Shown here one piece after another: positions 1,626 through 42,553 of a DNA stretch of 64,000 nt. The translations under genes were made by a program, and so were the position numbers. Source of the stretch: an uncultured Planctomycetota bacterium (GTDB lineage: Bacteria > Planctomycetota > Planctomycetia > Gemmatales > Gemmataceae); NCBI GenBank assembly GCA_963784995.1, contig CAWATZ010000006.1:72853-136852 (forward strand). Reading direction: 5' to 3'. The notes beneath the pieces are model-generated. The model searched no databases and was not told where the DNA came from. It saw only the letters and a program-made list of their open reading frames with translations. Position 1 is the stretch's first letter; each line of letters opens with the position of its first letter.

Positions 1626-1651
1626 GTCACGAACACCAAGGCGCGACGGTT

Positions 1652-1782: not shown

Positions 1783-1814
1783 AATTTGACCACGGATTCC
1801 TCCAGGAGCGACTG

Positions 1815-12474: not shown

Positions 12475-12691
12475 CGGAAGAACCCTTTAGCTGGTGTGGC
12501 TTGCCCCGGCACCAGACGGCGACCGCAAACAATCCACGTCTTTGTTGTATGGATTGGTGCTTCGATCTGCCACGGATTGACGCCCCCGGAACGGTTTGTT
12601 ACCCTCACGCCGTGGAGGTCTACCCAAACCGGGAACGCTTGCAGCAAGCCGCCTCCAACCGAACGTAGACAGCGGCAGCGGGAGAGAAGTC

Positions 12692-20199: not shown

Positions 20200-20484
20200 G
20201 GGTTGGTTCCCTTCTCTCCGTGTCGCGATCACTTGCCGAGACCCGGCTTCACTTCGGGCCTCACTTCTCTATTCGGGAACTTTTGCGGAACGTGGGAAAA
20301 ATTCGTGCGGAAATCTTTCAGGCTTGAGCCGTTGCCATGCAACCGCGCTGCGGGGTGGGTCCGTCTGGATACTTGATGCGGGATCGATAACACAACGGTG
20401 GCCAGCACTGGCCGGGCGCCCCGAAGACTGTTGCTCTTCTCTGAAGGCGCCGCCGCGCTGGCGGGCGGCGGCGGGAGACAAGCC

Positions 20485-22951: not shown

Positions 22952-24243
22952 CTACCTTGGCAAATAGCGAGCATACACCTCCAGCGTCTCCCGGGCCATC
23001 TGATCGGCCGTGAAGCGCTCGTGGACCGTCTCCTTGCCCTTGCGGCCCAGCTCCTCCGCCAGCGTCCGGTCTTCCATCAAGCGGCGCAATCCCCGGGCGA
23101 GGTCGGCCGGGTCGCCCGGGTTGACCAGCAGACCGCCGCCCGTCGCCTGGATCAGCTCGGGAAACGACCCGTGTCTCGGCTGCACCACAGGCACCCCGTT
23201 GGCCAGCGCCTCCAGAACGTACAGGCCCTTTGGCTCGCGGTAGGTCGTCGGCACCGACAGCACGTCAATCCCATGCAGGAAGGCGACCTTGGAGTCGTGG
23301 TCGGGGCACTCGACGTGCTCGAAGGAGTCGCTCAGGCCGTCCGACTCCAGACGCTTGCGCAGGTCGGCGAAGTATTCCTTGTTGTTCTCGCCGAGCCAGC
23401 CGGACACGCGCAGCCGGCACGGCGGCAGGTCCGGGTTCTGCCGCAGCAGGCGAAACGCCTCGATCAGGACGTGCAGTCCCTTCTCGGGGCACATGCGGGC
23501 AAAGTAACCGATCGTGAAGGGATGCCCGGTGCGGTCGGGCGCGGTCCGCCGTGGCCCTTGAGGTTCAGACCGGGATAGACAACGTGGATGCGCTCGCGCG
23601 GCAGGCCCAGGTAGCCGGCCATGAAGTCGGCGTAGTAGCTGCACGTCGCGATGAAGCCATCGATGTATTGGCCCTGCTCACGGATCAGGTCGAGGGCCTT
23701 GCGGCGATACCTGTCCGGCAGGCTTTCGAGGAAGATGTCGTCGCCCTGGAGCGAGCAGAGGATCGGCACGCCCAGCTTCTCCTTGAGGGCGGGCACCATG
23801 CCGGAGAGCAGGGCGTTGGTGAGCTGGATCAGTCCCGGCTTGATCTCGTGAGCGAGCCACTGCACCAGCTTGGCCACTTCCTTGCGCTGGTAACCGTGCG
23901 TCCCTTGCAGCATCGAGATGGTCAGCTCGCCCAGCTCCTCGGCCTGCGTCTTGACCGCGAAGCGCGACACCCAGCGCAGCAGACCCGGGATGTCGAGCAG
24001 CCGGTCGAAGACCCAGGGCGTCCAGCGAAAGAAGCCCATCTTCTGCTGCAAGTAGACGTTGATGCCGCCGAAGAAGACGCGATGCTGGCTGACGTCCTCC
24101 TCATCGGTGCGGATGGGGGTGTAGGTGGGCACCAGCAGCGCGTCCCGGCCCTGGCGGGCCAGGGCGGCGACCAGGGTGTTGTCGTGCATGCAGGAGCCGC
24201 AGAACATGCCCGCGGCCCCGGCGGTGACGTAGACGATCCGCAT
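22952..24243 (-). CDS. glycosyltransferase family 4 (frameshift near 23555)
   Basis: N-terminal GT-B half (MRIVYVTAGAAGMFCGS..., 23464-24243) and C-terminal half with EPKGLYVLEALANGVPVV (22952-23644) lie in different frames. Confidence 0.75.
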
Positions 24244-25717: not shown

Positions 25718-25940
25718 GACCAGCCAGGCGGTCAGCGTCAGTGGGCTGGGTGGTTGGGTGGGACTGGCCCCGGCACTGGGGCTGGCGGTAACGGCACCGG
25801 GGGGGATGGCAGTGAAGGACTCGGACACGATCAGCTCCGCAAGGTGCGAATGAGGATCAGCAGGGGACGGAAGGAGAAACGCTTCTCCGGCAGGATTCAG
25901 TCTATGGAGGTTGGGCTGCGGTGTCCGGTCAGACCCAGGC

Positions 25941-26008
25941 GAGCCCGCACGCCTGCGTGCGCTCCGGCCGGCAGGCCGGCCGGAGCGCACGCAGGCGTGC
26001 GGGCTCGC
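25941..26008. repeat. 68-bp near-perfect palindrome; head-to-head variant of the 40-bp GC-rich element family (copy A)
   Basis: GCGAGCCCGCACGCCTGCGTGCGCTCCGGCCGGC|AG|GCCGGCCGGAGCGCACGCAGGCGTGCGGGCTCGC. Intergenic, immediately 3' of the chorismate-lyase-like gene. Confidence 0.9.
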
Positions 26009-26010
26009 CT

Positions 26011-26551
26011 TATTTCTCCACAACGATCTCCAGCAGTTCCACCGCCGGCTGTTCGTCGCAATAGATGAACCCCAGCCGGCCGTACATCGGCCGGGGCTCG
26101 CTCAGGCCGAACCACTCCAGCTGTTTCGACCCCGGCTCCACCCGGAAATACGCCGTCGGCTCGATCCGCCGGAGGACGTTCTTCTCGATCAGGATGCGCC
26201 CCAGCGGCGTTTGCTCGGCCAGGATCGCCTCGCGGACGGCCGGGCGCAGTAATCGAGATTGATCCGGATGATCCCGAACAGGACCACCCGGCCGCTCTTC
26301 TGCAAGGTGAGCACGATCTTGCGCGAGTAGTAGTTGCCATCGCGGTAGCGTGCCAGGGGGCGGACGTTGACCAGGTCGCCGTGGTACGCTTCCACGGTGA
26401 CGGTCATGTGGTGCTCGTGGGCCAGCAGCGTGCGGAACGGCTCCGGCATGGCGTCGGCCGAGACCAGTTCGTGTTCGGGCAGGTCACCCACAGGCGGGAA
26501 CTGGACGAACAGGCTGATCAGGTCCGGCGTGACGCCAAGCGGAATGTTCAT
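26011..26551 (-). CDS. chorismate lyase family protein (UbiC/DUF98-like); frameshift near 26222
   Basis: FRTLLAHEHHMTVTVEAYHG in the N-terminal frame. After a -1 shift the C-terminal frame reads APAVREAILAEQTPLGRILIEKNVLRRIEPTAYFRVEPGSKQLEWFG... through to a stop at 26011. Compare E. coli UbiC ...TPLGRYLF.... Confidence 0.6.
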
Positions 26552-28359
26552 GGGGAAACCAGCTGTAACAAGGAAGCCGGCTCGGGGTCCGGCGGAGGTT
26601 GGCGGTCGAGTACGCTATCGACCAGGTAATACAGCAGCTCGCGCAGCTCGGTGGGTTCAATCTCGTCGGCAATCGCTTCGGAACGGGCCCGGTACTTCTC
26701 AACCAGCTTCTCGGCCTTGAGGAAGACGCCCGCTCGCAGGAACACCTGCCGGACTCGCTCGATCAGGCCTGGTAACTTTTCGCCCTTGTGGTGCAATAAT
26801 TGTACCAGTTCGGCCCGGTCGCGCGGTTGACTGCCTTCCAAAGCCAGGGCCAGCAGGAGCGTCGGGCGACCAGCAAGCACGTCCTGCCCGGCCAGCAATT
26901 TGTTGTCGCTATCGCCTTCCCAGTCCTTCAGGTCGTTGAGGATCTGGAAGGCCACACCCAGGTTCTTGCTAAATTCGACAATCGCTTTCTCGTAGGGGTC
27001 CGCGTCGCCGGCCAGGCGGATGCCGCTGTACAGGGCCGCCTCGAAGGCGGGGGCGGTCTTCAGGGCGTAGATTTTCAGGGCGTCCAGCGGCGTCAGCGTC
27101 TTGTCGGCACTGTCGCGCCACAGCAGCTCCGCTCCCTGGCCCTCCGACAGTTTCAGGTGGGCATCGGCCAGCCGGTGCAGGATGTCGGCTGTGCAATCGC
27201 CGCCTAGCTCCTTCCGCTCCCGGCTGATCAGGCGATAGCCCAGCCCGAGCAGGTAATCGCCGATGTTGATAGCAATGCAAGTCCCGTACCGCCGATGGAG
27301 CGTCTCCTGGCCGTAGCGGTAGCTGTCATCGTCCTCGATGTCGTCGTGGACCAGCGACGCCTTGTGGAAGGCCTCGATGGCCAGGGCGATGCGCTTGACG
27401 CTATCGGGCAAATTGCAGCCCTCCGCCGACACGGTGCCCGGGGCCCCCTTGAGGGCGTCGTAGGCGGCCAGGGTGATGAACGGGCGAGAGCGCTTGCCGC
27501 CGCGGGCCAAGAAGTCATAGGCAATGCTCTCGTGGCCGGTCAAGGGATCAGCCTTGGTTGGGGAGTTCTGCCCCATTCCGTTGCCATTCGTGCCTGCGGG
27601 CACAGCACGCGGCCGGGGCGCGAGCCGGCTGACCTCCGGCTCCTCGCAGGTCTGGTGGGCGGCCCGCATCAGGTGGACGTAGCCGCGGGTCTTGACGGGC
27701 GTTGGCTCGATCTTCAGGTCGATCATCTGGGAGACCCAGTCATCATCGACCGAAGTGCTGCGGCAGTTGCTCGAAAGCAGCGGCGCGGCGACGCAAGGGA
27801 TGCCGGCCAGGAGGATCTTGTCGATCGCCTTTTCCAGCACGTTCAGGCAAGCCACGCCGACAATGGCGTCCACGTGGCCGCTGACAATGATCTTCAGGAC
27901 GATGGGCGTCCCCTCGGAGACCAGCACCTTGTAGCCCAGTTCCTCGGCCTTGACCTTGAAGTCGGCAACGCTGCAGGCGCCGCACTTCTTGCAGTCGAGG
28001 CCAAACTCGTCGTAGTCGGCCGGACAGCCCTCGGCGTTCTTCAGACAGTGCGGCAATAACAGCAGCCGGCGCTTGAAGTCGATGGCGGCGACCTGCTCGC
28101 GCCAGAACTCGTTGGCCAGGCAGACCATGGTGAAACCCAGGTACTGCTCGCCCAACTCGAGCTGCCGGAGCAGGGTCTCGCCCATCTCCTGGAGGGCGGG
28201 CCGGGTCAGCGGCCGGCCCTTGTCGATGGTCTGCATGAATCGGCCGGCCGCGTCGCGAACCTGATCGCGGAGCTGGCGGGTTTCCGGCATGACCTTGAAG
28301 GCCGCGGAGCTGGTTTTCTTGTCCTTCTTCTCGGCGCGGGGTTCGGCAACGGTCGCCAC
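26548..28359 (-). CDS. DUF116 domain fused to polyprenyl (trans-isoprenyl) diphosphate synthase
   Basis: N-terminal LLLLPHCLKNAEGCPADYDEFGLDCKKCGACSV...GVACLNVL is the DUF116 pattern. C-terminal first DDxxD motif (LVHDDIEDDD) and second (FQILNDLKDWEGD) are typical of polyprenyl synthetases. Confidence 0.8.
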   Translation of the reverse strand: MATVAEPRAEKKDKKTSSAAFKVMPETRQLRDQVRDAAGRFMQTIDKGRPLTRPALQEMGETLLRQLELGEQYLGFTMVCLANEFWREQVAAIDFKRRLLLLPHCLKNAEGCPADYDEFGLDCKKCGACSVADFKVKAEELGYKVLVSEGTPIVLKIIVSGHVDAIVGVACLNVLEKAIDKILLAGIPCVAAPLLSSNCRSTSVDDDWVSQMIDLKIEPTPVKTRGYVHLMRAAHQTCEEPEVSRLAPRPRAVPAGTNGNGMGQNSPTKADPLTGHESIAYDFLARGGKRSRPFITLAAYDALKGAPGTVSAEGCNLPDSVKRIALAIEAFHKASLVHDDIEDDDSYRYGQETLHRRYGTCIAINIGDYLLGLGYRLISRERKELGGDCTADILHRLADAHLKLSEGQGAELLWRDSADKTLTPLDALKIYALKTAPAFEAALYSGIRLAGDADPYEKAIVEFSKNLGVAFQILNDLKDWEGDSDNKLLAGQDVLAGRPTLLLALALEGSQPRDRAELVQLLHHKGEKLPGLIERVRQVFLRAGVFLKAEKLVEKYRARSEAIADEIEPTELRELLYYLVDSVLDRQPPPDPEPASLLQLVSP

Positions 28360-28388
28360 GGTGTCGATTCCTCAGATTCTGCGGGTGT

Positions 28389-30239
28389 TTAGTCCTTGTT
28401 ACGTGTGCTGCGCAACCTCAATTGCAGAGCGCGTCCCAGCGCCGCAACCGCGAATACTACCGGGTAACACTTCTCGAAATACCAGAGCTTGGCAAAGTAA
28501 AAGCCAATTGGGGTGGGGTCGGAGAGCCGGCCTGACTCGACTTCCTGGACGAGCCAGTGCAAACCCTTATTCACGGCCGGGGCGATCCTTTCCTCCGGAC
28601 CGCAGGCAGCCAGGAGGGCATCGACCGCCAGGGCGGTTTCCTCGATGCTCGAAGGCGTCCCGGCAGCGCCGCCCCAGCCACCGTCGGCGTTCTGGGTGGA
28701 GAGCAGCCAGCGAACGCCGTGCTGGGCGGCGGGCAGCCTCATCTTATCGAGATCCCGAAACGCGGCCAGTACCCGGCTCGTGCCATAAGTCGGGTTGATC
28801 TCCTCCGGAGTGTGCTGATTGCCGAACCACAAGGGCAACCAGGAACCATCCGCCCGCTGACTCCGCTTCAGATAGGCCAGCCCCCGGTTGAACGCCCGCC
28901 CCACCCGGGCCCGGAAGGCGGCGTGGTCCGGGCCCACGATCTCTCGCCAGCGCCAGAGCGCCCTCATGGCGTGCGCGGTCAGGTCCACGCCGCTGCGATC
29001 GAACGGCAGCTTGCCCCATCCCCGGCAGAAGGTCGGCCAGCCGCCGTCGCGGTTTTGCAAGTCGAGCAACCAGCGCAGGGCCGAGCGAACGGTGTGCCCC
29101 AGGTCCACTCCCGGTAGAGGATTCAACCCCGGCAACCGCGAAAGGTTGTACAGGGCGAGCAAGGCCCCCGGCGTGTCGTCCGCGTCGGGCACGCTGCCGG
29201 ACAGGTACGACCAGCCCCAGCCGCCCGGATCGGCCCCGGTGTAGGGATGGCGCTCGATCACCTGCTGGTGGATCAGCCAGCGGTACAGTGGCTCCAGGTT
29301 CTCCAAACTCCCCAGGTCCCCGGCCATCGCCAGGGCATTGATGCTCAGGGTGGTGACCCAGACGGAGAGGTTGGTATCGATGGGCCAGCTGCCGTCAGGC
29401 CGGACGCCGCCGACCAGGAACTCGACGCATTTGCGGACCACGGCATGATCGGCCTGGCCGCTGCTGACCAGGCCCAGCGTCACAAAACTGGTCAGCGGGG
29501 CGGCTTCGAGGAAGCCGCCGCTGACCGGCTGGATCTTCTGCAAGACGTGCAAACTGGGCGAGATCGAGCGACGGCGGATCAGGCGCAGAGGAAAGGGAGG
29601 CGGCCGATGATGGAAGATCGACTGGCCAATCGCGATCAGTGCGGGCAAGGCGTAGCTGACGACGGGCAACTGGAGGAAGCGAAACCACGATTGCGGGAAG
29701 CAGGCCAGCTCGAAAGGGAGAGCGGGCACCTCGTTCCAGCCGACCAGGCCGGCGAGGGCGCTGGTCATGAGAATCGGGACGGAGAAGGTGCGATCCTGGC
29801 CGTAGCGGCGGCGGATGGCCTCGGCCAGCTGCTCGGGCGTCGAGCCGTAGCGAGCGGCCAGCCAGGCTTCGGCCCGGTGGAGGGTGTCGGAGTGAGCGGC
29901 CGCGGTGCCGGTGAGGTGGAACGCGGCCCGGCAGAGCATGGCGGTGGAGACGTTGCTGAAGCTGCGGACGGTGTCGCCCCAACCGCCATCGGCGTTCTGA
30001 TGGGCGACCAGCCAGCGGATGCCGGACTGGATCAGGGAGTCGAAAGTGCCAAGGGCGGTGGTGGCTTTCTGGACGTGAGCGAGGGCGCTGACGGCGGTGG
30101 CGGTGGAGAGGGCGGAGGTGGACAGCTCGCCGATCCAGTGACCGTCGGGAGTGCGTTCGGCGAGCAAGGCGGAGCGGGCGAGGGAAAAGGCGTGTCGGAG
30201 TCGATCAGTGGTCAGGTCCACGGCAGAGAAACACTCCAC
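28389..30239 (-). CDS. shc: squalene-hopene (triterpene) cyclase
   Basis: Multiple QW motifs (QNADGGWG, DGSWPIDTN...) and a DxDDT catalytic-like motif (VPDADDTPGALLAL). Confidence 0.85.
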   Translation of the reverse strand: MECFSAVDLTTDRLRHAFSLARSALLAERTPDGHWIGELSTSALSTATAVSALAHVQKATTALGTFDSLIQSGIRWLVAHQNADGGWGDTVRSFSNVSTAMLCRAAFHLTGTAAAHSDTLHRAEAWLAARYGSTPEQLAEAIRRRYGQDRTFSVPILMTSALAGLVGWNEVPALPFELACFPQSWFRFLQLPVVSYALPALIAIGQSIFHHRPPPFPLRLIRRRSISPSLHVLQKIQPVSGGFLEAAPLTSFVTLGLVSSGQADHAVVRKCVEFLVGGVRPDGSWPIDTNLSVWVTTLSINALAMAGDLGSLENLEPLYRWLIHQQVIERHPYTGADPGGWGWSYLSGSVPDADDTPGALLALYNLSRLPGLNPLPGVDLGHTVRSALRWLLDLQNRDGGWPTFCRGWGKLPFDRSGVDLTAHAMRALWRWREIVGPDHAAFRARVGRAFNRGLAYLKRSQRADGSWLPLWFGNQHTPEEINPTYGTSRVLAAFRDLDKMRLPAAQHGVRWLLSTQNADGGWGGAAGTPSSIEETALAVDALLAACGPEERIAPAVNKGLHWLVQEVESGRLSDPTPIGFYFAKLWYFEKCYPVVFAVAALGRALQLRLRSTRNKD

Positions 30240-30708
30240 GGCAAGGCCCGGTCAGGCGACGGGAGTGTTTTACGGCTCGGAGGCGAAAATGCCACGGTGC
30301 CAAGGGGGATAAGAGCGGTCGGCTGCCGAGCTACTGACCTCCGGTGGCCTGCCTGCACTGTCGGCCGAACCTGATCGGACGATAGTGCTGGACTGTGCCT
30401 GGCTGGCAGATCTTCCTTCCACGGCGTAACGCCGCAGCAAACGCTACCTCCGGACAGCCGGCCGCTCTCCCGCTTGGTGTAGGCCAGGACGAGGAAGCAG
30501 GCAAGGGAGATCGCGACCAGAACACATCCTTTTTTGCCTGGTTGCCGGGCATGGACCAGACTACAATGGGTTCTGGTTTGCAACGATTGCAGCTGGGGCG
30601 GCCTTGCAGCGCAGCGGTGTTGTGCGGCGAACCGAGTGACGTTCGGGAGTCATCGGCAGAACGGGAGTCGCGCAAACACGAGTCTCGAAATGGGATAGGG
30701 AGCCGGAC

Positions 30709-31324
30709 GTGACAACAGAGCAGCCAACGCTGACTTCTCTCCTGAAGCAGGTCCAGGCAGGTTCCCAGGAGGCGGCGCAAACGCTGTACGACCTCTACGC
30801 CTCCCACGTGCGCCAGGTGATCCGCTTGCGTCTCTCGGATCGGCTGCGCCGGCGGTTTGATTCCCTGGATTTCTGCCAGGACGTCTGGGCATCGATCTTC
30901 ACCTCTCCCCCGGAGCCGGACGCCTTTGAGTCGCCGGAGAAATTCGTTGCGTTCCTGACCCGCATGGCCCAGAACAAGGTGACCGACGCTACCCGGCAGC
31001 AACTGGGGACGGAGAAATACGATCTCGGTCGCGAGGAACCGTTCAGCCGGAGCAACGAAGGCAAGGTCCCGGTGCGACTCTTTGCCCGCGAGGACACTCC
31101 CAGCGTCCTCGCCGCCAGCAAGGAGGCGTGGGACAAGCTCCTCGTCAGCTTGCCTCCGGTACACCGGCGCGTCCTGGTGCTGCTTCACCAGGGAAAGACT
31201 CAGGAGGAGACGGCCGCGAAGCGCAGGCCGGCCTGCCGGCCGGAGCGCACGCAGGCGTGCGGGGGTCACCCGGAGGACCGTCGAACGGATCTATGCCCGT
31301 GCCGTGCAGCAGCTCCGTTCCTGA
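30709..31324 (+). CDS. ECF-type sigma factor, 3' end disrupted by 40-bp palindromic element copy B
   Basis: Region 2 (ASHVRQVIRLRLSDRLRRRFDSLDFCQDVWASIF) and the start of region 4 (VLVLLHQGKTQEETAAK) are followed by the element ([15 protein letters not shown]). The expected helix-turn-helix continuation GVTRRTVERIYARAVQQLRS* lies in a different frame. Confidence 0.7.
31222..31261. repeat. 40-bp GC-rich palindromic element, copy B (CGCAGGCCGGCCTGCCGGCCGGAGCGCACGCAGGCGTGCG)
   Basis: Exact consensus copy. Contains the CGCACGC-AGG-CGTGCG hairpin and a GGCCGGCC..CCGGCCGG palindrome. Confidence 0.9.
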
Positions 31325-31354
31325 AACCGGTTCTCCCGCCGCATTGACTGGACC

Positions 31355-33527
31355 GTGAAGTATTGGGATATCGCAGCGAACCTGGATTACAGACGAGTCA
31401 TGGCGGAAATGAGCCCAGAAGCACGAGCAGACGGTTGCATCCGAGAGGAGAGCTGGTCGGTCCTCCTGGAGGCAGCTTACTTTGAATACTGCTGCCTCGA
31501 GCAAGAGGGCCAGGCCGTCGATCTCCAGGCCTTCTGTGCGCGCTATCCAGGGATGCACGGCGCTCTGTGGATTCTCTTGCAGAGTCACCAGTTTCTGGAG
31601 AACAACCCGCACCTGCTGATTCGCGAGCCCAACTGGCCGCAGCCCGGCGCGACCTTTCGGGGTTTCCGCCTGGAACGGCTGCTCGGGCAAGGGTCGTTTG
31701 CCCGGGTCTTCCTGGCCCGCCAGCTGGCCCTCGGCGGCCGGCTGGTGGCTTTGAAGCTCTCGACTCGAACGGGCGCCGAAGCGCACGTGCTCGGGCGGCT
31801 GGTGCATCCCAACGTCATCCCCGTCTTTTCGGTGGAGCGCGACGAGGCCACCGAACTCACGGCCCTGTGCATGCCGTATTTCGGAGACGCGACCCTGCTG
31901 GACGTGCTGGTTCAGCTCCAGGCCGCTACCGCGCTGCCACGGAACGCGGCCGTCCTGCTGGACGTGCCCAGGCGGTTGGCCGCCGCGCTGCCGCTGGAAA
32001 ACGTGTTGCCACCGCCGCGCGTCCTGGTCCAGGGCAGCTACGAGGAAGGGGTGCGTCATCTCGGCAGCCAGCTCGTGGACGCGCTGGCCTACCTCCACGA
32101 GCAGGGCATTGTCCACCGCGACCTGAAACCGTCCAACATCCTGCTCACGCCTGCCGGGACGCCCCTGCTGCTGGACTTCAACCTCTGCGCCGCGGTCGAG
32201 CAAAACGATGCCGAACATGGGGGATCGGTCAGGTACATGGCTCCCGAGATCCTGGGGGCCATGATCCAGCAGGATGCCCCGGCGCCGCTCGATGGGCGTG
32301 CCGACCTCTTCTCCCTGGGAGTCATCCTTTACGAGCTGCTGACCGGTTGCCACCCGTTTGACCCACTGCCGAGGGAGCTGGACACGAAGGAATCCTGGCA
32401 GCAGTTGCTGAAGTGCCAGCAGGCGGGCAGCCGGCCTGTCCGGGCTTTGAACCCCCGCGTCGATCCCCAGCTGGGCGCCCTGGTGGATCAGTGTTTGTCC
32501 TGGGATGCCGCTCGGCGTCCGCCCCTCGCACGCCTGCGTGCGCTCCGGCCGGCAGGCCGGCCTGCGCTTCGCCGCCGTCGCGGCCTTGCGTCCACGCATC
32601 AGTTTCGTAACCCGCGTGCGGGCCCTGGCAACCCACCGTCCACGGACCGTTGCTGCTCTCCTGGTGTCGGGGCTCCTTGCTGTCCCGGCACTGGCGCTGG
32701 CGTTGTCCGGCGGGTTGCTCGGGACGGAGTTGGAACGCGGCCGGGAAGCGTACCGTCAGGGGCGGTACGAGCAGGCCGTGGTCCATTTCGATCGAGCGCT
32801 GGCAACCGACCCCAACGACGCCCAGGGATGGTTTGCGCGCGGACTGGCCTACCAGAAACTGGGGCAGTCGGATCGCAGGAACTACGCCCACGCCGCGGCG
32901 GACTTCGAGGGGGCCTGGCGCCTCGACCCGCAAGGAAAAAGCAAAGCCTGTCTGGGTTACTGTTTGCAGGCGCGAGGACAATCTCTGGAGGCCGCTCTGG
33001 TGTATGAGGAGGCCATCCAGAGCGGTTACGCTCCGGCCGAGTTGCTCAACAACCTCGGTGCCGCGGAATGGGCCCTGGCCCGTCTGGCTCTGGCCGAACA
33101 GCACCTCAGCGCTGCCATCAAGCTCGAACCACGCCTTCAGGCAGCCTACCATCACCGCGCTCTTGTCTATCTGCAACTCGCACGCCAGCAGACGGCGCCC
33201 GATGCCGCGTTACGCCGGGACAAGTTCCTCCGCGCGGGCATCGCAGACGCGAACAAGGCCCTTGCACTTGGGCCGCCCTCAGGGGAATTGTTTTACGACG
33301 CCGCTCAACTGTGTGGAGTGGCCGCACGTACTCACCCGGTGTGGGCGAACCCAGCACTGGACTACCTCGACCAGGCCTTGCGTTACGGCGTCAAGCCGAA
33401 GCAACTTGCCGACAAGGCCTGGGTCGCCCTGCACAAGGAACCCCGTTTCCAGGCACTCGAAAAACGCTCTCCCGTTCCTCACCCGGCATTCAAGGCCGTG
33501 CGCATCCTGCCTCCCGTGAAAGAGTAA
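31355..33527 (+). CDS. Ser/Thr protein kinase-TM-TPR protein, interrupted by 40-bp element copy C
   Basis: Kinase domain ([18 protein letters not shown]...RYMAPE) up to ...SWDAARRPP. Then the element. Then, in another frame, a TM segment ([20 protein letters not shown]) and TPR repeats ([38 protein letters not shown]...). Confidence 0.75.
32527..32566. repeat. 40-bp GC-rich palindromic element, copy C (reverse orientation)
   Basis: CGCACGCCTGCGTGCGCTCCGGCCGGCAGGCCGGCCTGCG is the exact reverse complement of copy B. Preceded on the element strand by CGAAG, as are copies B and D. Confidence 0.9.
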
Positions 33528-33593
33528 GGGCTGCTCTCCAGGCATGGTTAGGCGCGACGCGGAGCACGCCGGCCACAACCTTCGCGCTCCTGT

Positions 33594-33621
33594 CCCGTGG
33601 GTCGCGCAGCGCACCCACGGG
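33594..33621. repeat. 28-bp hairpin CCCGTGGGTCGCGCAGCGCACCCACGGG (single arm of the 1652-1782 palindrome family)
   Basis: Sequence identity to 1746-1782. Followed by an unusually AT-rich stretch. Confidence 0.8.
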
Positions 33622-33821
33622 GACCATTTTTTGCAAAAAAACTTTTTCGCAATGTCTCAATGCTGGGTCAAATCTCGATTATTAATAGGAGAAGCTTCTC
33701 ACCTTTTTACCAACACCGTCCCGGAACCCTGAGTGCGGTTTGACTGCCGCCGTGCTCCTGCGTGATCGGTGCGCGCCGGCAGGGGGACTGACTTGCGCCT
33801 GTGAGAAAGGTGGAATGAAGC

Positions 33822-34570
33822 ATGTGGAAGACTCTGCTTACGTGGTGGCAAAGGCCAGCAAGACGTGCCAGCGCCCAGCCGGTCCGGCTCTTTCTGGAGC
33901 ATCTGGAATCGCGCTGGTGTCCCTCGTCTGGAGGGGGAGGGGGAGGGGCGCCGACGTTGACTTACAACGTCACCCAGACCGGCGGCCAGACCGTCCTGAT
34001 CTCCGGCACGGTCACGGACCAGAACCCCAGCTCGGTGGACATTTCCTTCACGGGCGTGGTCAACACCAGCATCACCGCATCCGCCAACGGGACCTTTTCC
34101 GTCTCGACGACGGCCTCCGCCCTGGGAGAAATTGACGGCGTGGACAAAGGTGGCCCAGCAGTTGAGTTCGCCGCCACCCCGGGTTGCGCTGCGCTCCACC
34201 CGGGGCTCTATTCCCCAGGACAGGAGTAAAGCCCCGGGTGGAGCGCAGCGCAACCCGGGGGAGTTCGCCGGTCGTCCCCTTCAACCTGACGAACAACCCG
34301 CCGCAGATCGTGAATTTCCAGGCCGTCCAGGTGACGGGCAACATCTGGACGCTGAGCGGACAGGTCCAGGATGCCTGCGCCAGCGGGTTGGTGGTGACCT
34401 TCGGCGGGTTTCCCGAGCTGGACGGGCAGACGGTCCTGACGGATGACAACGGCAACTTTTCTTTTGCGGTCACGCTGGCCGATGGCGAGTACGGAACCGC
34501 GACCGCCCAGACCTGCGATGGCTGGGACATGGAGTCCAACGTCGCCGAGTGGTACATCAACCCGGCCTAG
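33822..34570 (+). CDS. secreted protein with two tandem Ig-like/beta-sandwich repeats, interrupted between the repeats by a hairpin MITE
   Basis: N-terminus RRASAQPVRLFLEHLESRWCPS (planctomycete secretion-type leader). Repeat 1 is ...ISGTVTDQNPSSVDISFTGVV...NGTFSV. Repeat 2 is ...LSGQVQDACASGLVVTFGG...NGNFSFAV. The two repeats lie in different frames on either side of 34176-34261. Confidence 0.6.
34176..34261. mobile_element. 86-bp hairpin MITE-like element (arms CCGGGTTGCGCTGCGCTCCACCCGGGG / CCCCGGGTGGAGCGCAGCGCAACCCGG) flanked by a 10-bp direct repeat GAGTTCGCCG
   Basis: Perfect ~27-bp inverted arms around a 28-nt loop. GAGTTCGCCG is present at 34164-34173 and 34261-34270. A second copy without an obvious duplication lies at 35716-35806. 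Confidence 0.75.
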
Positions 34571-34626
34571 CGTCCGATACGCAGACGGCAACAGGACCAC
34601 ACCAGGCCGCCCGATCGGAACCAACG

Positions 34627-34968
34627 ATGCACAAAAGCAAAGACGTGGACCGCCTCGTCGAGCGAACCCAGAGCGGGGATGCCGATGCGGCGGCGATCAT
34701 CCGCCGCCAGGTGAAGCCTCTCCTTGCCTGCAGGCTCCGCTGGAACCTGCAGGGAGAGGGAGGCACGACAGGGGTGGACCAGGTGCTGAGCGAATTCCTC
34801 CACGAGCAGTCGGCGACGGTCGATCGCGCGACCCTGGCGGAACCGAAGGAAATCGAGCGCCTCGCTGAGATCCTCACCGACCGATTCATGAACCGTCTGG
34901 CCGCACAGGGCGCAGTCGAGACAACCGTGCCGTACCAGCGAACCGTGCGCATGCCAGCGGTTCGCTGA
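34627..34968 (+). CDS. hypothetical protein
   Basis: 113 aa from MHKSKDVDRLVERTQSGDADAAAIIRRQ.... Helical, no recognisable family. Confidence 0.4.
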   Translation: MHKSKDVDRLVERTQSGDADAAAIIRRQVKPLLACRLRWNLQGEGGTTGVDQVLSEFLHEQSATVDRATLAEPKEIERLAEILTDRFMNRLAAQGAVETTVPYQRTVRMPAVR

Positions 34969-35117
34969 GCCGCGCTGCCGGCACAAGCACCCGCCCTCGC
35001 AGAGAGCCTTTGCATGGCGACCATCTTGATCGTCGATGACCAGCTGAGCATCCGCTACTATCTGGTGCGGCTGCTGGAGCACGCCGGCCATCGGTTGCTC
35101 CAGGCCGCCGACCGAAG

Positions 35118-35157
35118 CGCAGGCCGGCCTGCCGGCCGGAGCGCACGCAGGCGTGCG
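35118..35157. repeat. 40-bp GC-rich palindromic element, copy D
   Basis: Exact consensus. Sits between receiver-domain codons ...AADRS and EALATVK.... Removing 38 nt restores the receiver reading frame. Confidence 0.9.
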
Positions 35158-35715
35158 AGGCCCTGGCAACCGTCAAGGCGGAACGGCCCGACCTGGTGAT
35201 CACCGACATTCAGATGCCGAACGTGGACGGCTGCGAGTTTGTCCGCCAGCTCCGTGCGGATCCTGCCCTGGCAGCGACACCGGTCATCTTCTGCACGGCC
35301 CGCTCCAGGGAGGAGGCCCAGGTCCTGGCCGATGCCTGGGACGTCGCCGACGTCCTGACCAAACCCTGGGAGCCGGAAGCGGTTCAGCGCGCGGTGGCGT
35401 CCGCCCTGAGCATCGCCCCGCTTCCGGCACCTCCCACCCCGGAGCCTGAGATGCCGGACCAACCCAGAACGGCCAGGCAGACCGAGGCGGCGCTGCGCCA
35501 GTGAAGAACTCTTCCGCAGTGCCTTTGAGTACACCAACGTTGCCATGGTCCTCATGGACGTCAACAATCGCTTTGTTCGTGTCAACGCTGCATTTACCCA
35601 GCTGCTGGGCTATTCGGAAGCGGAGCTGCAACTGGCGATGAGCGACGTCACCCACCCGGACGATCTGGCAGAAAGCGACTCCCGTCGTGCGGCCCTGCCG
35701 GCCGGCACCAGGCGT

Positions 35716-35806
35716 CCCCGGGTTGCGCTGCGCTCCACCCGGGGCTTTACTCCTCAAACCAGGAGTAAAGCCCCGGGTGGAGCGAGGTACGAGCGCAACC
35801 CGGGGG
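35716..35806. mobile_element. 91-bp hairpin MITE-like element (same family as 34176-34261)
   Basis: CCCCGGGTTGCGCTGCGCTCCACCCGGGGCTTTACTCCT...AGGAGTAAAGCCCCGGGTGGAGCG.GGTACGAGCGCAACCCGGGGG. It is translated in frame as ...PRVALRSTRGFTPQTRSKAPGGARYERNPG... inside the first PAS region. Confidence 0.75.
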
Positions 35807-36169
35807 TCTTCCAGATGGAGACACGCTATCGGCACAAGGACGGACACGTCCTGTGGGGCTTGACGAACGTCTCCCTGGTGCGCGACACCAGCGGTCAGCC
35901 GATGCTGTACGTCGGCCAGGTGCAGGACGTCACCGAACGCAAACGCTCGGAAGAGGCACTGGCCAGGTCCGTCGAGCGCCTGCGCATCCTGCATCAGATT
36001 GACCTGGCTTTGATCAAGGGGGAAAGGCCGGAAGAAATTGCCGGAGCAGCCGTGGCACCCCTGCGCGAACTGCTCGGGGTGTCCCGTGCCGTCGTGAACC
36101 TGTTTGACCTGGCCAGCGGCGAGGTCGAGTGGCTGGCCAAAGCGGAGGCCAGCCCTCTGCCCGACCTGT

Positions 36170-36207
36170 CGGGCAGGCCCGACGGAGCGCACGCAGGCGT
36201 GCGGGGG
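36170..36207. repeat. partial or variant copy of the 40-bp element (copy E)
   Basis: GGGCAGGCCCGACGGAGCGCACGCAGGCGTGCGGGGG keeps the 3' hairpin half exactly. Read in frame within the GAF region ([15 protein letters not shown]). Confidence 0.7.
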
Positions 36208-36776
36208 CAGCACCGGGTCCACGTCGGTCCAGGCATCCGCTATTCGATCCGGTTCATGGGGGACGTGGAGGCCTTGCGGCGGGGTGAACTGCAAGTGATC
36301 GACGTCCACGCACTGCCTCCCGGGCCGGAAGTCGATGCCTTGCTGGCCTCCGGGGTCCACTCCTGCGTGGTCGTGCCCATGATCGCCGAAGGCGAACTGA
36401 TCGGCGCGCTCAGCTTCGGAGGCACCGAGGTCGCGTTGTCCCCGGAGCAGGTCACGGTCGCGCAGGAGGCCGCTTCGCAGTTCGCGATCTCCATCTCCCA
36501 GGCGCGACTCCATGAACGGGTCAAACGCCAGGCGCAGGAACTCGAAGCGCAGGTCACCGAGCGCAAACTCGCCGAGGAGGCATTGTGCCTGGCTCAGCAG
36601 CGCCTGCAACACGTGGTGAGTTCCAGCCCGGCCGTGCTCTGCACCCTGGCGGTCGAGGACAGCGACCTCCGGCTCACCTGGATCAGCGACAACGTGCGCG
36701 AGCTTCTTGGCTACTTGCCGGCGGAGGTGTTCTCGCCCCGCTGGTGGCAGGAGCGCGTCCACCCGGAGGACCGGCA

Positions 36777-36836
36777 GCACGCCTGCGTGCGCTCCGTCGG
36801 GCCTGCCCGACAGGTCGGGCAGAGGGCCGGCCTGCG
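36777..36836. repeat. 60-bp variant of the 40-bp element with an extra internal hairpin (copy F, reverse orientation)
   Basis: GCACGCCTGCGTGCGCTCCGTCGGGCCTGCCCGACAGGTCGGGCAGAGGGCCGGCCTGCGC. The histidine-kinase frame is lost exactly here. Confidence 0.8.
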
Positions 36837-37615
36837 CTTGGGGCCGAGATCCAGCAGGGGCTGTTGTCCCACGGTCGCCTGGCCAGTGAGTACCGCTTCC
36901 AGCACAAGGACGGGACCTATCGCTGGGTCCGGGGCGAGTTGCGGTTGCAGAGCGACCCGGCAGGCGGGGCCACGGAAATTGTGGGCTCCTGGTCGGACGT
37001 GACCCAGCGCAAACAGCTGGAGGAGCAGTTCCGCCAGGCGCAGAAAATGGAGGCGATCGGCCGGCTGGCGGGCGGGGTGGCGCATGATTTCAACAATCTG
37101 CTGACCATCATCAACGGCTACGGCACCCTGGTGCTGACCCGGTTGCCGGCCGACGACCCCACGCGCGAAATGATCCGGGAGGTCGTCGCCGCCGGGGACC
37201 GGGCTGCCGGTCTGACGCGCCAGCTGCTGGCCTTTAGCCGCAAGGCCTTCATCGAACCCAGGGTGCTGGACCTCAAAGTCCTGGTCGGCGACCTCCAGAA
37301 AATGCTTCGCCGCATCATCGGCGAGGACATCCAGCTGACCGTGGCGTCCGATCCCGACCTGGGCGCGGTGAATGCCGACCTCGGCCAGATCGAGCAGGTG
37401 ATCATGAACCTGGTGGTCAACGCCCGGGACGCCATGCAAGGGGGCGTTTGGGGAGACCCTCCACAACACCACCCGCCGGGGGGCCAGCTGACCATCGAAC
37501 TGCGCAACCGCGACCTGGACGAGACATCCGCTCGGGAGCAGCCGGAAGCCCGGGCCGGACCGTACGTGGTGCTGACGGTCCGCGACACGGGCTGCGGCAT
37601 GGACGCGGCCCCGAG

Positions 37616-37656
37616 CGCAGGCCGGCCTGCCGGCCGGAGCGCACGCAGGCGTGCTG
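37616..37656. repeat. 40-bp GC-rich palindromic element, copy G (3' end GTGCT variant)
   Basis: Inside the HATPase_c G1/G2 region, between GCGMDAAP and [11 protein letters not shown]. Confidence 0.85.
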
Positions 37657-37869
37657 GGCCCGGATCTTCGAGCCCTTTTTCACCACCAAGGGGGAAAAGG
37701 GCACCGGACTGGGGCTGGCCACGGTCTATGGCATCGTCAAGCAGAGCGGCGGCCACGTCACCGTCTCCAGCGCGGTGGGGGCCGGGACGACCTTCCAGGT
37801 GTACCTGCCGCGCGTGCAGCAACGGCCCTCGGAAAGGATGAAGGATGAAGGATGAATCAGAACCCCAAG

Positions 37870-37909
37870 CGCAGGCCGGCCTGCCGGCCGGAGCGCACGC
37901 AGGCGTGCG
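37870..37909. repeat. 40-bp GC-rich palindromic element, copy H
   Basis: Exact consensus, 17 bp downstream of the histidine-kinase stop. Possible terminator-like position. Confidence 0.9.
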
Positions 37910-37960
37910 TGGCACCCGGCAACTGACGCAGAGGGGCACCCGCTTGCGGGTCTGCCGGAA

Positions 37961-40976: not shown

Positions 40977-41597
40977 CATGAAGCCCGACACGTCCGCCTA
41001 CGGTTCGGTCACGGCCCTCCTCGAGCGCCTGAAGAGCGGCGACCACGAGGCCGCACGCCTGCTGTGGCAGCGCTACTACCCGCGTCTGGTGGCGCTGGCC
41101 CGGCAGAAGCCGCAATCGGGGTAGTCCAGCGTGGCGTCGCCGACGAGGAGGACGCGGTCCTCAGCGCCTTCAACAGCTTCTGCCGCCGGGCCGAAGAGGG
41201 GCACTTCCCCGACCTGAAGGACCGCGACGGCTTGTGGGCCTTGCTGGTGGTCCTCACGGTCCGCAAGGCCGCCGACCTGCTCCGGCACCACCAGCGCGAG
41301 AAGCGCGGCGGCGGTCTGGTCCAGGACGAGTCGGTCCTGCAGCCAGCCCAGGGTGACAGCGGCCCGGGCGGCCTTGACGTCCTGCCGGGCGACGAGCCGA
41401 CACCGCTGGAAGCGGCCCTCCTGGCGGAAGTAGTCGAGAACCTGCTGGCGCGGCTGCGTGAATCAGCGTTGCGTCAAATCGCGGTCTGGAAACTGGAGGG
41501 CTACACCAATGCCGAGATTGCCTCTCGACTGGGCTGTTCCGAGCCGACCGTGGAGCGCCGGCCGGTCATCATCCGCCGCTTGCTGAAAGGACCGTGA
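40977..41597 (+). CDS. ECF sigma factor (planctomycete kinase-associated type); frameshift near 41115
   Basis: MKPDTSAYGSVTALLERLKSGDHEAARLLWQRYYPRLVALARQK. Then a -1 shift into ...DEEDAVLSAFNSFCRRAEEGHFPDLKDRDGLWALLVVLTVRKAADLLRH.... Region 4 is LRQIAVWKLEGYTNAEIASRLGCSEPTVERR. Confidence 0.75.
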   Translation, partial: HEARHVRLRFGHGPPRAPEERRPRGRTPAVAALLPASGGAGPAEAAIGVVQRGVADEEDAVLSAFNSFCRRAEEGHFPDLKDRDGLWALLVVLTVRKAADLLRHHQREKRGGGLVQDESVLQPAQGDSGPGGLDVLPGDEPTPLEAALLAEVVENLLARLRESALRQIAVWKLEGYTNAEIASRLGCSEPTVERRPVIIRRLLKGP

Positions 41598-41629
41598 TCC
41601 CAACGTCCAGTCGAAGCGAAGGAAAAGCG

Positions 41630-42553
41630 ATGATACACGATAAACGATTCAAGGTGCTGTTGCGGGAGTTTCTGCGGGAGTTCCCGGCGCTGTTCTTTCC
41701 GGAGCTGTTTCCCCACCTGGACCTGGCCAAAGCGGACTGGCTGCACCAGGAGCTTTATCACGCGCTTCAAGAGGGCAGCACGGAGACCATCGACCTTTTG
41801 GTCCGGGTGCCACTCTTGTCCTCGGCAGCCAGCCTCGCTCCTCCCGATTGTCCGACATTCGATGCCATCCTCCTTCACATCGAGGTCGAGTCGGCTGACA
41901 CGGTGGCACCCTTCCGCAAACGGACGTACCACTATTATCACCAGCTGACCGAGGTCCACGGACTGAACGTGTTTCCGATCGCGGTGTATCTGCGAGTGGG
42001 GTTGGAGGGCCGGGGCAAGGATGCCTACGAGGTCCGCGTGCTGAACCGGACCCCTCTGCGCTTCGAGTATGATTACGTCGGGCTACCCGGTTTGGAGGGC
42101 AAGGATTACCTCCACCAGGACAACCCGCTGGGGATCGCCTGGTCCGCCCTGATGCGCTGGTCGCGGAAGCAGCGTGCCCAGGCCGCCGTCGAGGCCCTGG
42201 ACCGCATCGTGGCCAGCGCGGAGAGCCCGGCCCGCAAGATGCTGCTGTGTGAGTGCGTACAGGCGTATGCTCCCCTGGAAGACGACCAGCGTCTTGAGAT
42301 ATACTCGCTATTGAAACAACCTGAACATGAAGGAGTCCGTGCCATGGTCAAAACCTGGTCCGAAGAAGGCGAAGAAAGAGGCATCCTGAAAGGGCAACGC
42401 GAACTGTTGCTCAAACAACTGGTGGTGAAATTCCCCACGTTGAGCAAGGCAGCGCGTGAACGAGTGGCCAGTTGGCCACTGGAGAAAATCAACGAGGTGG
42501 GAGTCGCCATGTTCAACGCCCAATCGCTGCGCGAGCTGGGGCTGGAGGACTGA
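41630..42553 (+). CDS. Rpn/YhgA-like PD-(D/E)XK nuclease family protein ('transposase_31') with DUF4351 C-terminus
   Basis: KRFKVLLREFLREFPALFFPE... N-terminus typical of YhgA/Rpn. C-terminal ERGILKGQRELLLKQLVVKFPTLSKAARERVASWPLEKINEV is DUF4351-like. Confidence 0.75.
   Translation: MIHDKRFKVLLREFLREFPALFFPELFPHLDLAKADWLHQELYHALQEGSTETIDLLVRVPLLSSAASLAPPDCPTFDAILLHIEVESADTVAPFRKRTYHYYHQLTEVHGLNVFPIAVYLRVGLEGRGKDAYEVRVLNRTPLRFEYDYVGLPGLEGKDYLHQDNPLGIAWSALMRWSRKQRAQAAVEALDRIVASAESPARKMLLCECVQAYAPLEDDQRLEIYSLLKQPEHEGVRAMVKTWSEEGEERGILKGQRELLLKQLVVKFPTLSKAARERVASWPLEKINEVGVAMFNAQSLRELGLED

Follow-up and report, generated by a model that had tools for sequence, protein, structure and literature searches.

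Small palindromic elements predicted to have broken most genes of a regulatory cluster in a Gemmataceae-like bacterium

The regulatory cluster and its palindromic repeats

The 64-kb stretch of DNA analysed here (the window) carries a cluster of regulatory genes comprising an ECF sigma factor, a Ser/Thr kinase (STK-TPR), a hypothetical gene (33822..34570) and a sensor kinase gene. Within this cluster and beside it lie eight copies (A–H) of a short, GC-rich palindromic element (Table 1). Judged from the sequence, insertions have broken most genes of the cluster. That the eight copies fall within 12 kb and nowhere else in the window had been proposed in the initial annotation of this DNA, and three kinds of search bear this out. 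With up to 3 mismatches allowed, a search for the 40-mer returned 6 copies against 0 expected in shuffles (25946-25985 and 32527-32566 on the minus strand; 31222-31261, 35118-35157, 37616-37655 and 37870-37909 on the plus strand), whilst a repeat search added two longer variants at ~36143-36203 (+) and ~36775-36836 (-). The 19-nt 3' module of the element, GGAGCGCACGCAGGCGTGC, occurs nine times with zero mismatches, every time inside the cluster, and matches with 1-3 mismatches were found nowhere else in the 64 kb. All eight copies thus lie at 25.9–37.9 kb, with none in the rest of the window, and the probability of such clustering (8 copies per 12 kb) is about 5e-5.

Six of the eight copies (B–G) are inside ORFs, again as first proposed, a proportion that describes one 64-kb window. 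The two intergenic copies, A and H, have placements typical of REP sequences, that is, downstream of genes or between convergent genes: A lies 179 nt downstream of the stop codon of an ORF at 26189..26551(-) and upstream of a minus-strand MFS transporter gene, and H begins 14 nt past the sensor kinase stop codon (37853-37855).

Table 1. Palindromic elements of the regulatory cluster and the sensor kinase gene that carries several of them (window positions)
Feature	Position	Strand	Description
Copy A	25937..26010		74-nt perfect palindrome, two 3' modules head to head; intergenic
Copy B	31222..31261	+	40 nt in Sigma70 region 4 of the ECF sigma factor gene; preceded by CGAAG
Copy C	32527..32566	-	40 nt in the STK-TPR gene, where the kinase domain has its C-terminal end
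elem2-arm-related hairpin	33594..33623		Just past the STK stop codon (33527)
elem2	34177..34260		84-nt near-perfect palindrome in the hypothetical gene
Sensor kinase gene	35014..37855	+	Interrupted RR-PAS-GAF-PAS-HisKA-HATPase_c gene carrying D, elem2, E, F, a 12-aa insert and G
Copy D	35118..35157	+	Receiver domain, residue 35; the frame needs a net 38 or 41 nt, not 40
elem2	35716..35805		90-nt copy in the sensor kinase gene (first PAS domain), adding exactly 30 aa in frame
Copy E	36143..36203	+	Long variant with diverged 5' end; GAF domain, in frame
Copy F	36775..36836	-	Long variant, 62 nt, ends GCGTGCTG; second PAS domain, frame broken
Copy G	37616..37656	+	41 nt, ends GCGTGCTG; HATPase_c, between DTGCGMD and FEPFFTTK, frame broken
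Copy H	37870..37909	+	40 nt; intergenic, between convergent genes

The element exists in three forms. In the short form, a 39-nt core that ends in GCGTGC is followed by 0-2 more bases; the long form has, in addition, an internal hairpin block of 21 nt; the third is the 74-nt head-to-head dimer seen in copy A. An identical 40-mer is common to five copies, with G carrying an extra T before the last base. The shared ending of F and G reflects this extra T rather than a G-to-T substitution, and their inserts are 62 and 41 nt, respectively. The 40-nt unit contains two 6-bp GC stems that are unlike each other (CCGGCC/GGCCGG and CGCACG/CGTGCG). The 19-nt module consists of GGAG and the hairpin CGCACG-CAGG-CGTGCG and is invariant across copies; what sets the long form apart from the short is the internal hairpin, the 3' hairpin module being exactly the same in both. 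The unit had been described as two stacked GC hairpins; as a monomer it folds no more stably than shuffled sequence (z = -0.9), and the fold of dimer A is exceptional (DNA fold -59 kcal/mol, z = -14.4). The 12-nt termini, CGCAGGCCGGCC and the reverse complement of the 3' end CGCACGCCTGCG, match at 9/12 positions, which is weak for so GC-rich a sequence. Five copies are in plus and two in minus orientation within 7 kb, a small sample.

A second palindrome family of 84–90 nt (elem2) has also inserted into two of the genes in this 7-kb stretch. The copy at 34177 brings a TAA into the frame that is read upstream of it and shifts the reading frame.

Interrupted genes and insertion junctions

The sigma factor gene is in two pieces (30709..31221 and 31262..31324). 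Cutting out the 40 nt of B regains the frame and gives a protein one residue shorter than its homologue; the sigma factor of locus L038, which has the same sigma-to-STK gene pair, is without the insert. The STK-TPR gene is likewise split (31355/31400..32526 and 32567..33527) and its frame is regained once the 40 nt of C are cut out. Copy C had been placed in the linker between kinase and transmembrane segment: it does precede that segment, by 27 residues, but sits on the final residue of the Pkinase match. None of eight STK homologues (P0121-P0129) has an insert here. The window's other STK and sigma genes carry no element and are intact.

The source annotation of the ~850-aa sensor kinase consists solely of a 485-aa fragment (P0034, 35545..37002), and the gene has in addition a 12-aa in-frame insert at 37437-37472 and a frameshift at 35502 with no element. 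Relative to homologues, the net insert at E is exactly 60 nt (20 aa). Copy F, assigned in the initial annotation to the PAS/HisKA junction, is actually at about residue 524 within the second PAS (PAS_3) domain (494-572; HisKA is at 597-658), and the homologues have 2 residues more at this site. The homologues P0001, P0002, P0009 and P0016 (56-67% identity) lack the inserts E, F and G and elem2. A C-terminal receiver domain, present in all close homologues, is missing, and copy H lies where these homologues run on into it.

Once the elements are excised, the proteins give full-length Pfam domains, and the coding sequence beside each break is intact and conserved equally before and after. From the insert-free sigma, STK and sensor kinase homologues, every intragenic copy reads as an insertion: the homologues do not carry the segments as native sequence. 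The empty sites (B, C, E, F and G) are defined at the protein level, the best homologues being 54-67% identical and mostly not syntenic.

Frame breaks had been proposed at every internal copy except E, and five of the six intragenic copies indeed cause a frame shift (B, C, D, F and G), E being the exception. The target preference for CGAAG, first noted at B, C and D, is supported and can be widened: ..AAG stands 5' of all nine monomer copies (GAG in G), with AAG itself in at least 8/9 (P about 6e-15). The target is usually C-S-N-AAG, with the element directly 3' of AAG. As sites E and G match homologue length only when AAG is kept, AAG belongs to the host target and not to the element. Aligned flanks revealed no target-site duplication or direct repeat at any of the nine sites. 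The AAG-side junction is exact, whereas the opposite junction varies by 1-3 nt. Net inserts are 40 nt at B and C, 41 at G, 62 at F, 60 at E and 38 or 41 at D, and copies of identical sequence thus differ in net insert modulo 3 (B and C against D); with insert lengths of 39, 40, 41, 60 and 62 nt, the 3' junction is inexact. The contig has at least four frameshifts in 64 kb with no element nearby (at about 18745, about 23550, 35502 and about 54300), so single-base details of the junctions are uncertain.

Beyond the window, the 40-mer occurs in two JGI metagenome contigs (L034 and L035), 97.5-100% identical and each time preceded by ..AAG. Both copies lie in ORFs: that of L034 is in frame inside an intact 322-aa PyrK-like ORF, to which it adds 13-14 aa in the same frame as E, and that of L035 is within another histidine kinase. 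No 35-mer match was found among 185,579 species-representative genomes, and a 19-mer search gave scattered single matches at chance level only; viral contigs had no element match, and a frame-c peptide profile yielded one word-sharing candidate among 5.8 billion proteins. The element family is probably lineage-restricted.

Origin of the copies and competing explanations

Taken together, these results lead us to favour, with a probability of roughly 70%, a REP/MITE-like mobile palindrome, lineage-restricted and non-autonomous, that recently accumulated in a dispensable or decaying module. The sequence shows insertion directly 3' of a host AAG without target-site duplication; mobilisation would occur in trans through an enzyme encoded outside the window, most plausibly a hairpin- or ssDNA-recognising HUH-type transposase (RAYT, IS200/IS605-like or of rolling-circle type). 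As the ORFs scanned in the 64-kb window include no transposase of suitable type (Y1 and TnpA included), we infer both the mobility and the enzyme class. The 19-nt module is probably what the mobilising protein recognises, since it is invariant in every copy. Copies B, C, D, F and G would lead to truncated proteins, and E and the L034 copy, with net multiples of 3, are predicted to form tolerated Ala/Gly-rich loops of 13-20 aa.

The annotated suggestion that a REP/MITE-like family inserted into coding sequences of signalling genes is supported, most insertions shifting the frame. Recent activity fits the identical 40-mer of five copies, and the near-identity of copies indicates that the frame-breaking insertions are recent. 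Relaxed selection fits as well: the same genes have been hit by a further element family, contain a frameshift with no element and have lost the C-terminal receiver, the last two pointing to decay, and a sigma/STK/receiver/sensor-kinase module that was dispensable or already decaying could have let two element families accumulate. Some features fit less well. The unequal net inserts modulo 3 (B and C against D) are not predicted by precise cut-and-paste or peel-and-paste transposition, and the mixed orientations are a weak argument against the strand bias of the IS200/IS605 type.

Could the repeat be an artefact of assembly or basecalling, for instance an adapter, a chimera or GC hairpins that were systematically miscalled? 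The strong GC-richness and self-complementarity of the sequence and the stray frameshifts of the contig speak for this, yet we give this reading almost no credence, for the 40-mer with its AAG flank recurs in two independent metagenome assemblies in different gene contexts, variants exist with a 21-nt internal block as well as a diverged in-frame copy, and the copies sit in otherwise colinear coding sequence. Basecalling error, raised in the initial annotation, is thus rejected for the element itself; given the element-free frameshifts, the 1-2 nt differences at 3' junctions may still be error. This leads to a subtler proposal, unlikely in our view, in which the elements are real and the frame breaks are not: true inserts would be multiples of 3 (39, 60 and 84/90 nt) forming tolerated loops like those of Rickettsia palindromic elements (RPEs), and the extra one or two bases at 3' junctions would be residual long-read indel errors. 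The core lengths (39, 60 and, for elem2, 84/90 nt) are indeed all divisible by 3, elem2 at 35716 is in frame, as are E and the L034 copy (these two in the same one), a run of five G lies at the 3' junction of B, and the 1.44-Mb contig has its element-free frameshifts. The separate L034 and L035 assemblies, however, show 40 nt and not 39, and five independent errors would be needed, each a few bases from an element, against a background of about 1 per 16 kb and zero errors across nine 19-nt modules. Moreover, the junctions of D and G have no homopolymer, and elem2 at 34177 brings TAA into frame whatever the junction bases.

Ribosomes can bypass coding gaps, as in T4 gene 60 and with the 'byp' elements of yeast mitochondria. 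The interrupted genes might still function, through bypass, removal at the RNA level or precise DNA excision that would make them switchable regulators. Compact hairpins, coding flanks intact and conserved alike on both sides of each break, and net lengths free of any multiple-of-3 constraint, as expected if frame were immaterial, all speak for this. Very recent insertions predict intact flanks equally, however; no Rfam ribozyme or intron matched even at permissive thresholds, the monomer hairpins do not exceed shuffled sequence in stability, inspection found no convincing matched take-off and landing codons, and the element-free frameshift and lost domain in the same genes indicate decay. We consider it highly improbable. 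A classical MITE recognised by a DDE transposase through terminal inverted repeats, rather than by an HUH-type enzyme, is a more serious contender and still an unlikely one: the size, the absent coding capacity and the imperfect inverted repeat of the termini agree with it, but target-site duplications are seen at 0/9 sites, DDE transposition would not predict junctions so unequal, one abutting a fixed host trinucleotide and the other variable, and long and short forms share the 3' module exactly while differing in the internal hairpin. Rather doubtful, finally, is the proposal that a polar mode of insertion, so far undescribed, uses the element as its minimal substrate: a hairpin-specific nuclease or transferase would join one end exactly beside AAG, and the other end would be resolved imprecisely, with 0-3 nt gained or lost. 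If copies also moved by short-range 'local hopping', the presence of eight within 12 kb would be explained; in a bolder form, insertion and excision would switch signalling genes reversibly.

Implications and relation to known systems

If the favoured reading holds, a selfish element of only 40 nt is causing mutations by insertion in a planctomycete with a large genome, and the window captures a stage before purifying selection purges genic copies: in-frame copies would persist as extra protein loops, and frame-breaking ones would mark recently killed paralogues in an expanded signalling repertoire. The exact AAG junction and the invariant module would then be a testable predicted recognition site for the mobilising enzyme. 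Such elements fragment gene annotation, as the 485-aa piece of the kinase illustrates, and they and real sequencing error can each be mistaken for the other.

REP/REPIN sequences, mobilised by RAYT (Y1 HUH) enzymes, resemble the element in being short (20-40 nt), GC-rich imperfect palindromes with a conserved short motif adjoining the hairpin, occurring as single units and inverted dimers (copy A resembles a REPIN) and having intergenic copies downstream of genes and between convergent ones. REP superfamilies carry a GTAG or CGTC tag and are mostly extragenic, downstream of ORFs, with intragenic examples documented; a cognate RAYT gene flanked by REPs forms a REPtron (PMC3733652). Here, by contrast, both tags are missing from the element, whose ends read CGCA.. 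and ..GTGCG, and from the conserved ..AAG beside it; this AAG is apparently host target, 6/8 copies in this one window are intragenic and no RAYT gene is among the window ORFs scanned.

Subterminal hairpins, insertion directly 3' of a short specific target, absence of duplication and asymmetric ends also characterise IS200/IS605 elements and their miniature hairpin derivatives, which move by peel-and-paste of ssDNA (PMC3201880, PMC5027513). Their targets are specific tetra- or pentanucleotides, and their ends are precise, with similar imperfect palindromes close to each. The present element differs in its two dissimilar hairpins, inexact 3' junction and size (40 nt, far below that of described derivatives) and perhaps in its mixed orientations over 7 kb, and there is no TnpA gene within the window. 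Classical MITEs (Correia/NEMIS, Nezha, Chunjie) are likewise non-autonomous and small, have stem-loop potential and can inactivate genes through insertion (PMC3184786, PMC10969869), but the element is several-fold shorter, with a weak terminal inverted repeat and no target-site duplication.

RPEs, intragenic ERIC and Coxiella QMITE1 are palindromic selfish DNA within protein-coding genes, some copies being read in frame as peptide loops (PMC3184786, PMC10969869, PMC5896051), as is predicted for E, for the copy in L034 and for the elem2 copy at 35716. RPEs, however, are about 105-150 nt long and characteristically in frame, whereas the short form here measures 40 nt and the frame is broken by most of the local copies. 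Insertions of REPs, MITEs and RPEs within genes, some in frame and others inactivating, are known (PMC3733652, PMC3184786, PMC10969869), so that what had been called unusual about these insertions is their local density and not the phenomenon. The palindromic family itself is previously undescribed; the kind of selfish DNA to which it belongs is a familiar one.

Forms, folding and distribution of the element

The 40-nt element CGCAGGCCGGCCTGCCGGCCGGAGCGCACGCAGGCGTGCG has six matches in the window at up to three mismatches, against none in 100 shuffles, and repeat finding identified two further, longer variants (see table). When all copies are aligned together with their flanks, the long form differs from the short form by an added internal hairpin block of 21 nt, whilst copy A is a 74-nt perfect palindrome made up of two 3' modules arranged head to head. 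This 19-nt module, GGAGCGCACGCAGGCGTGC, occurs nine times without mismatch, always between 25.9 and 37.9 kb, and a search allowing one to three mismatches found none elsewhere in the 64 kb. Eight points placed at random would all fall in a 12-kb stretch of the 64 kb with a probability of about 5e-5. Match counts, shuffles and the lack of stray 3' modules thus bear out the initial annotation's description of a family present in this cluster and absent from the rest of the window.

The monomer, folded as single-stranded DNA, has two 6-bp hairpins with a stability no greater than that of shuffled sequence (z = -0.9); the folding of dimer A is exceptional by the same comparison (z = -14). The element termini form a weak inverted repeat (9/12 matches). 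The 5' end of the monomer corresponds to the left arm of dimer A minus 16 nt, suggesting that the short form may derive from a longer perfect palindrome.

Evidence that the element is not peculiar to this assembly comes from a metagenome scan, in which the 40-mer was found in two other contigs. In contig L034 the copy (97.5% identity) follows GGAAG and is read in frame within an intact 322-aa PyrK-like ORF; in contig L035 it matches at 100%, follows CCAAG and is located in the linker of another histidine kinase. In the same L035 ORF an unrelated palindrome of ~86 nt, ACGGCTTCGGGCACGGATGAACACGGATCAAAACAA...TTGTTTTGATCCGTGTTCATCCGTGCCCGAAGGCCGT (about 900-985, minus-strand reading), directly adjoins the 40-nt element, which raises the possibility that hairpin elements nest or have targets in common. 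The exact 35-mer has no match in GTDB species-representative genomes, a 19-mer scan of genomes gave nothing beyond single chance matches in unrelated phyla, and viral contigs matched neither palindrome family. One 19-mer match, in a Planctomycetota MAG (L018), was ruled out as an element copy, being ordinary coding sequence. At the protein level, a concatenated six-frame peptide query returned 601 word-sharing candidates, none at E ≤ 10, and a padded 40-column profile of the tolerated frame returned one such candidate and no match among 5.8 billion proteins. Taken together, these results indicate that the element is biological, base-conserved across datasets and confined to a narrow lineage. 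The host is Gemmataceae-like: the window encodes WD40-STK fusions, DUF1559 proteins and ECF-STK pairs, and the best named homologues are from Gemmata and Gemmataceae.

Insertions in the signalling genes

Frameshifts were called from Pfam domain continuity, because neither a GC3 frame plot nor a self-trained codon model gave a signal clear enough for the purpose. Reconstructions from which the elements were excised yield complete proteins by Pfam: an ECF sigma factor, a Ser/Thr kinase with a transmembrane segment and TPR repeats, and a receiver-PAS-GAF-PAS-HisKA-HATPase_c protein. On sequence comparison, insert-free homologues settle the insertion status of five sites (B, C, E, F and G). Excision of B restores the frame, leaving the product one residue short (..EEIASRLGVNERT.. 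against ..EETAAK-GVTRRT.. in the homologue), and excision of C leaves ..DAARRPP/.., which is 0-1 residue shorter than the homologue ..RPQSAAELAAALR... Copies F and G share the terminal sequence GCGTGCTG. The proposal that these are insertions into signalling genes that break the frame at every internal copy but E is upheld by the homologue comparison at B, C, E, F and G, and the frame is shifted at D as well. Domain positions agree with the earlier assignments for every copy except F, which falls within the second PAS domain instead of at the PAS/HisKA junction. The synteny comparison for empty sites used one locus, L038; the loci around the two best kinase homologues are unrelated to that of the window.

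Element copies and other features of the window (positions in nt; STK, Ser/Thr kinase)
Feature	Position (strand)	Net insert	Observation
Copy A	25937-26010		intergenic, between two co-directional genes
Copy B		40 nt	frame broken; against sigma factor of L038, a homologue locus with the same sigma-to-STK pair
Copy C		40 nt	frame broken; against eight STK homologues (48-54% identity)
Copy D		38 or 41 nt	frame broken; no close homologue, receiver-domain spacing slightly favours 38
Copy E		60 nt (+20 aa exactly)	in frame; against four sensor-kinase homologues (56-67% identity)
Copy F		62 nt	frame broken, site 2 residues shorter; against four sensor-kinase homologues
Copy G		41 nt	frame broken; against four sensor-kinase homologues
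Copy H			intergenic, between convergent genes, starting 14 nt after kinase stop codon
Longer variants (copies E and F)	about 36143-36203 (+); about 36775-36836 (-)
Second palindrome family	34177..34260
Second palindrome family	35716-35805	+30 aa exactly	in sensor kinase, in frame by homologue alignment
12-aa insert	37437-37472	12 aa	in frame, HATPase_c N-box; absent from all four close homologues
Receiver-PAS frameshift	35499-35505		shift at 35502, no element
Sensor kinase truncation	37853-37960
ORF identical to P0034	35545..37002
GT4-family glycosyltransferase	22952-24243 (-)		shift about 23550 (junction about 23530-23570), no element
Glyco_transf_4 N-domain ORF	23464..24243
Glycos_transf_1 C-domain ORF	22952..23644
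STK-WD40 fusion gene	18670-18799 (-)		shift about 18745, no element
Amidohydrolase gene	(+)		shift about 54300, no element
Rpn/YhgA-like ORFs	58157-59383 (+); 41594-42553 (+)
Direct repeats	57848/59344; 50356/52043		117 nt; 177 nt
Triplicated gene, about 1.1 kb	12596-13708 (+); 20398-21477 (+); 47903-48468 (-)
Genes between copy A and sigma factor	26548-30251 (-)		polyprenyl-synthetase fusion protein and squalene-hopene cyclase-like gene
Intergenic palindrome	1650-1784		135 nt
Hairpin	33594-33623

The kinase gene is affected in other ways. It carries five separate small inserts, and the annotation of the source, a public MAG with this region on a 1.44-Mb NCBI/ENA contig, calls just a 485-aa piece of it (database protein P0034). 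The 12-aa insert is not obviously palindromic and occurs once in the window. The receiver ORF stops at ..TEAALRQ(stop), with the PAS domain resuming in a different frame as (S)EELFRSAFEY; the database protein P0001 reads uninterrupted through the equivalent site as EEALRASQEIFRSAFEH, indicating that receiver and sensor kinase were once one gene, now split by a 1-2-nt indel. The kinase also stops right after HATPase_c, whilst every close homologue has a C-terminal receiver of about 130 aa. Copy H lies exactly at this truncation point, and deletion of the receiver may therefore be linked to the element. Two intragenic copies of a second palindrome family (84-90 nt) lie in the affected module, one bringing a TAA. 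A near-perfect intergenic palindrome near the start of the window (67-nt arms, 91% complementary) has outer arms, CCCGTGGGTGCGCTGCGCGACCCACGG, that resemble this second family and a further hairpin, placing the family outside the cluster also.

The second palindromes, the element-free frameshift and the receiver loss fit a paralogue cluster that is dispensable or already in decay and that tolerates insertions. Elsewhere in the window, two STKs (13.7 and 42.8 kb) and two sigma factors (21.5 and 40.8 kb) are intact and element-free. Five copies are identical, which points to recent frame-breaking insertion. Between copy A and the sigma factor, the polyprenyl-synthetase fusion and cyclase-like genes, as read from their translations, are intact and element-free.

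Insertion anatomy and competing explanations

AAG (GAG in the case of G) stands immediately before each of the nine monomer copies, with a chance probability of about 6e-15, and position -4 or -5 is usually C. Site lengths at E and G equal those of the homologues only when AAG is counted as host sequence, hence AAG is read as a target motif and not as part of the element; the target preference first hinted at by a CGAAG flank therefore holds in this broader form. No target-site duplication was seen in the flanks of the aligned copies. The junction beside AAG is exact; the far one is not constant (the net insert in L034 is 39 nt; for the other copies see table), and no fixed mobile unit of 38, 39, 40, 42, 45 or 48 nt, with or without AAG, a CG/AG duplication or a terminal CG, fits all the frame changes.

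Could the elements be in frame, with assembly error behind the apparent breaks? The contig does contain element-free frameshifts, about one per 16 kb, which could be residual long-read indel errors or scattered pseudogenes: the glycosyltransferase is split by a plain +/-1 indel (..VYPGLNLKGHGGPR / DRTGHPFTIGYFARM..), and the STK-WD40 fusion is shifted within its kinase domain (..LEMFLGERP / WREGQVAHVALQ..). Junction differences of 1-2 nt are consequently only as sure as the assembled sequence. Such a background cannot, however, create a 40-nt element or five junction-adjacent shifts, and we consider this explanation unlikely. That the element is itself a product of systematic basecalling error, as the initial annotation had allowed, is not borne out, the same 40-mer being present in independent metagenome contigs; a pure artefact, contradicted by these datasets, is the least probable explanation of all.

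Genuine insertions might still be neutralised by excision, splicing or bypass, but the element has no Rfam match at any threshold, its hairpins have no unusual stability and there are other signs of decay in the same genes, making this very improbable. As for ribosomal bypass, take-off and landing codons match only in the trivial way to be expected of GC-rich codons. Nor does any known structured RNA fit; sub-threshold Rfam matches were miRNA-precursor look-alikes on the long hairpin of the second family. A DDE-type MITE would account for the weak terminal inverted repeat but not for the missing duplication, and is doubtful to much the same degree as in-frame elements with assembly error.

Mobilisation and comparison with known elements

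The combination of a fixed target in the flank, subterminal hairpins and a lack of duplication suggests that the inserted element would be mobilised in trans by a hairpin- or ssDNA-recognising enzyme, these features being hallmarks of IS200/IS605 and RAYT systems (PMC3201880, PMC5027513, PMC3733652). The fit to those systems is not a simple one: the element lacks a GTAG/CGTC tag, its two hairpins differ from each other, its 3' junction is inexact and its orientations are mixed. This junction asymmetry would match a rolling-circle HUH enzyme that leaves one end precise and the other sloppy. The window encodes no HUH, DDE or serine transposase, only Rpn/YhgA-like ORFs ('Transposase_31' plus DUF4351, a recombination-promoting nuclease family). 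These have no link to the elements, and no homology supports them as mobilising genes; direct repeats of about 90% identity lie near them. Supporting homology is likewise lacking for a triplicated gene (76-92% nucleotide identity, no Pfam or NCBIfam match), which represents either a paralogue family that has expanded or a piece of an unrecognised mobile element.

Our results come from a single window with an assembly indel background, and within that scope the element provides a testable recognition site. The intergenic placements of A and H are typical for REP (PMC3733652). Intragenic small palindromic repeats are documented among REPs, ERIC, RPEs and Coxiella and cyanobacterial MITEs, and both in-frame 'decorations' and inactivating insertions are already known (PMC3733652, PMC3184786, PMC10969869, PMC5896051). 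We found no such palindromic family described in the literature for Gemmataceae or Planctomycetes. The element is thus a new family of an already known sort of small palindromic repeat, not conceptually new but distinguished by its very small size, AAG target without duplication, invariant 3' hairpin module, inexact far junction and extraordinary local load.
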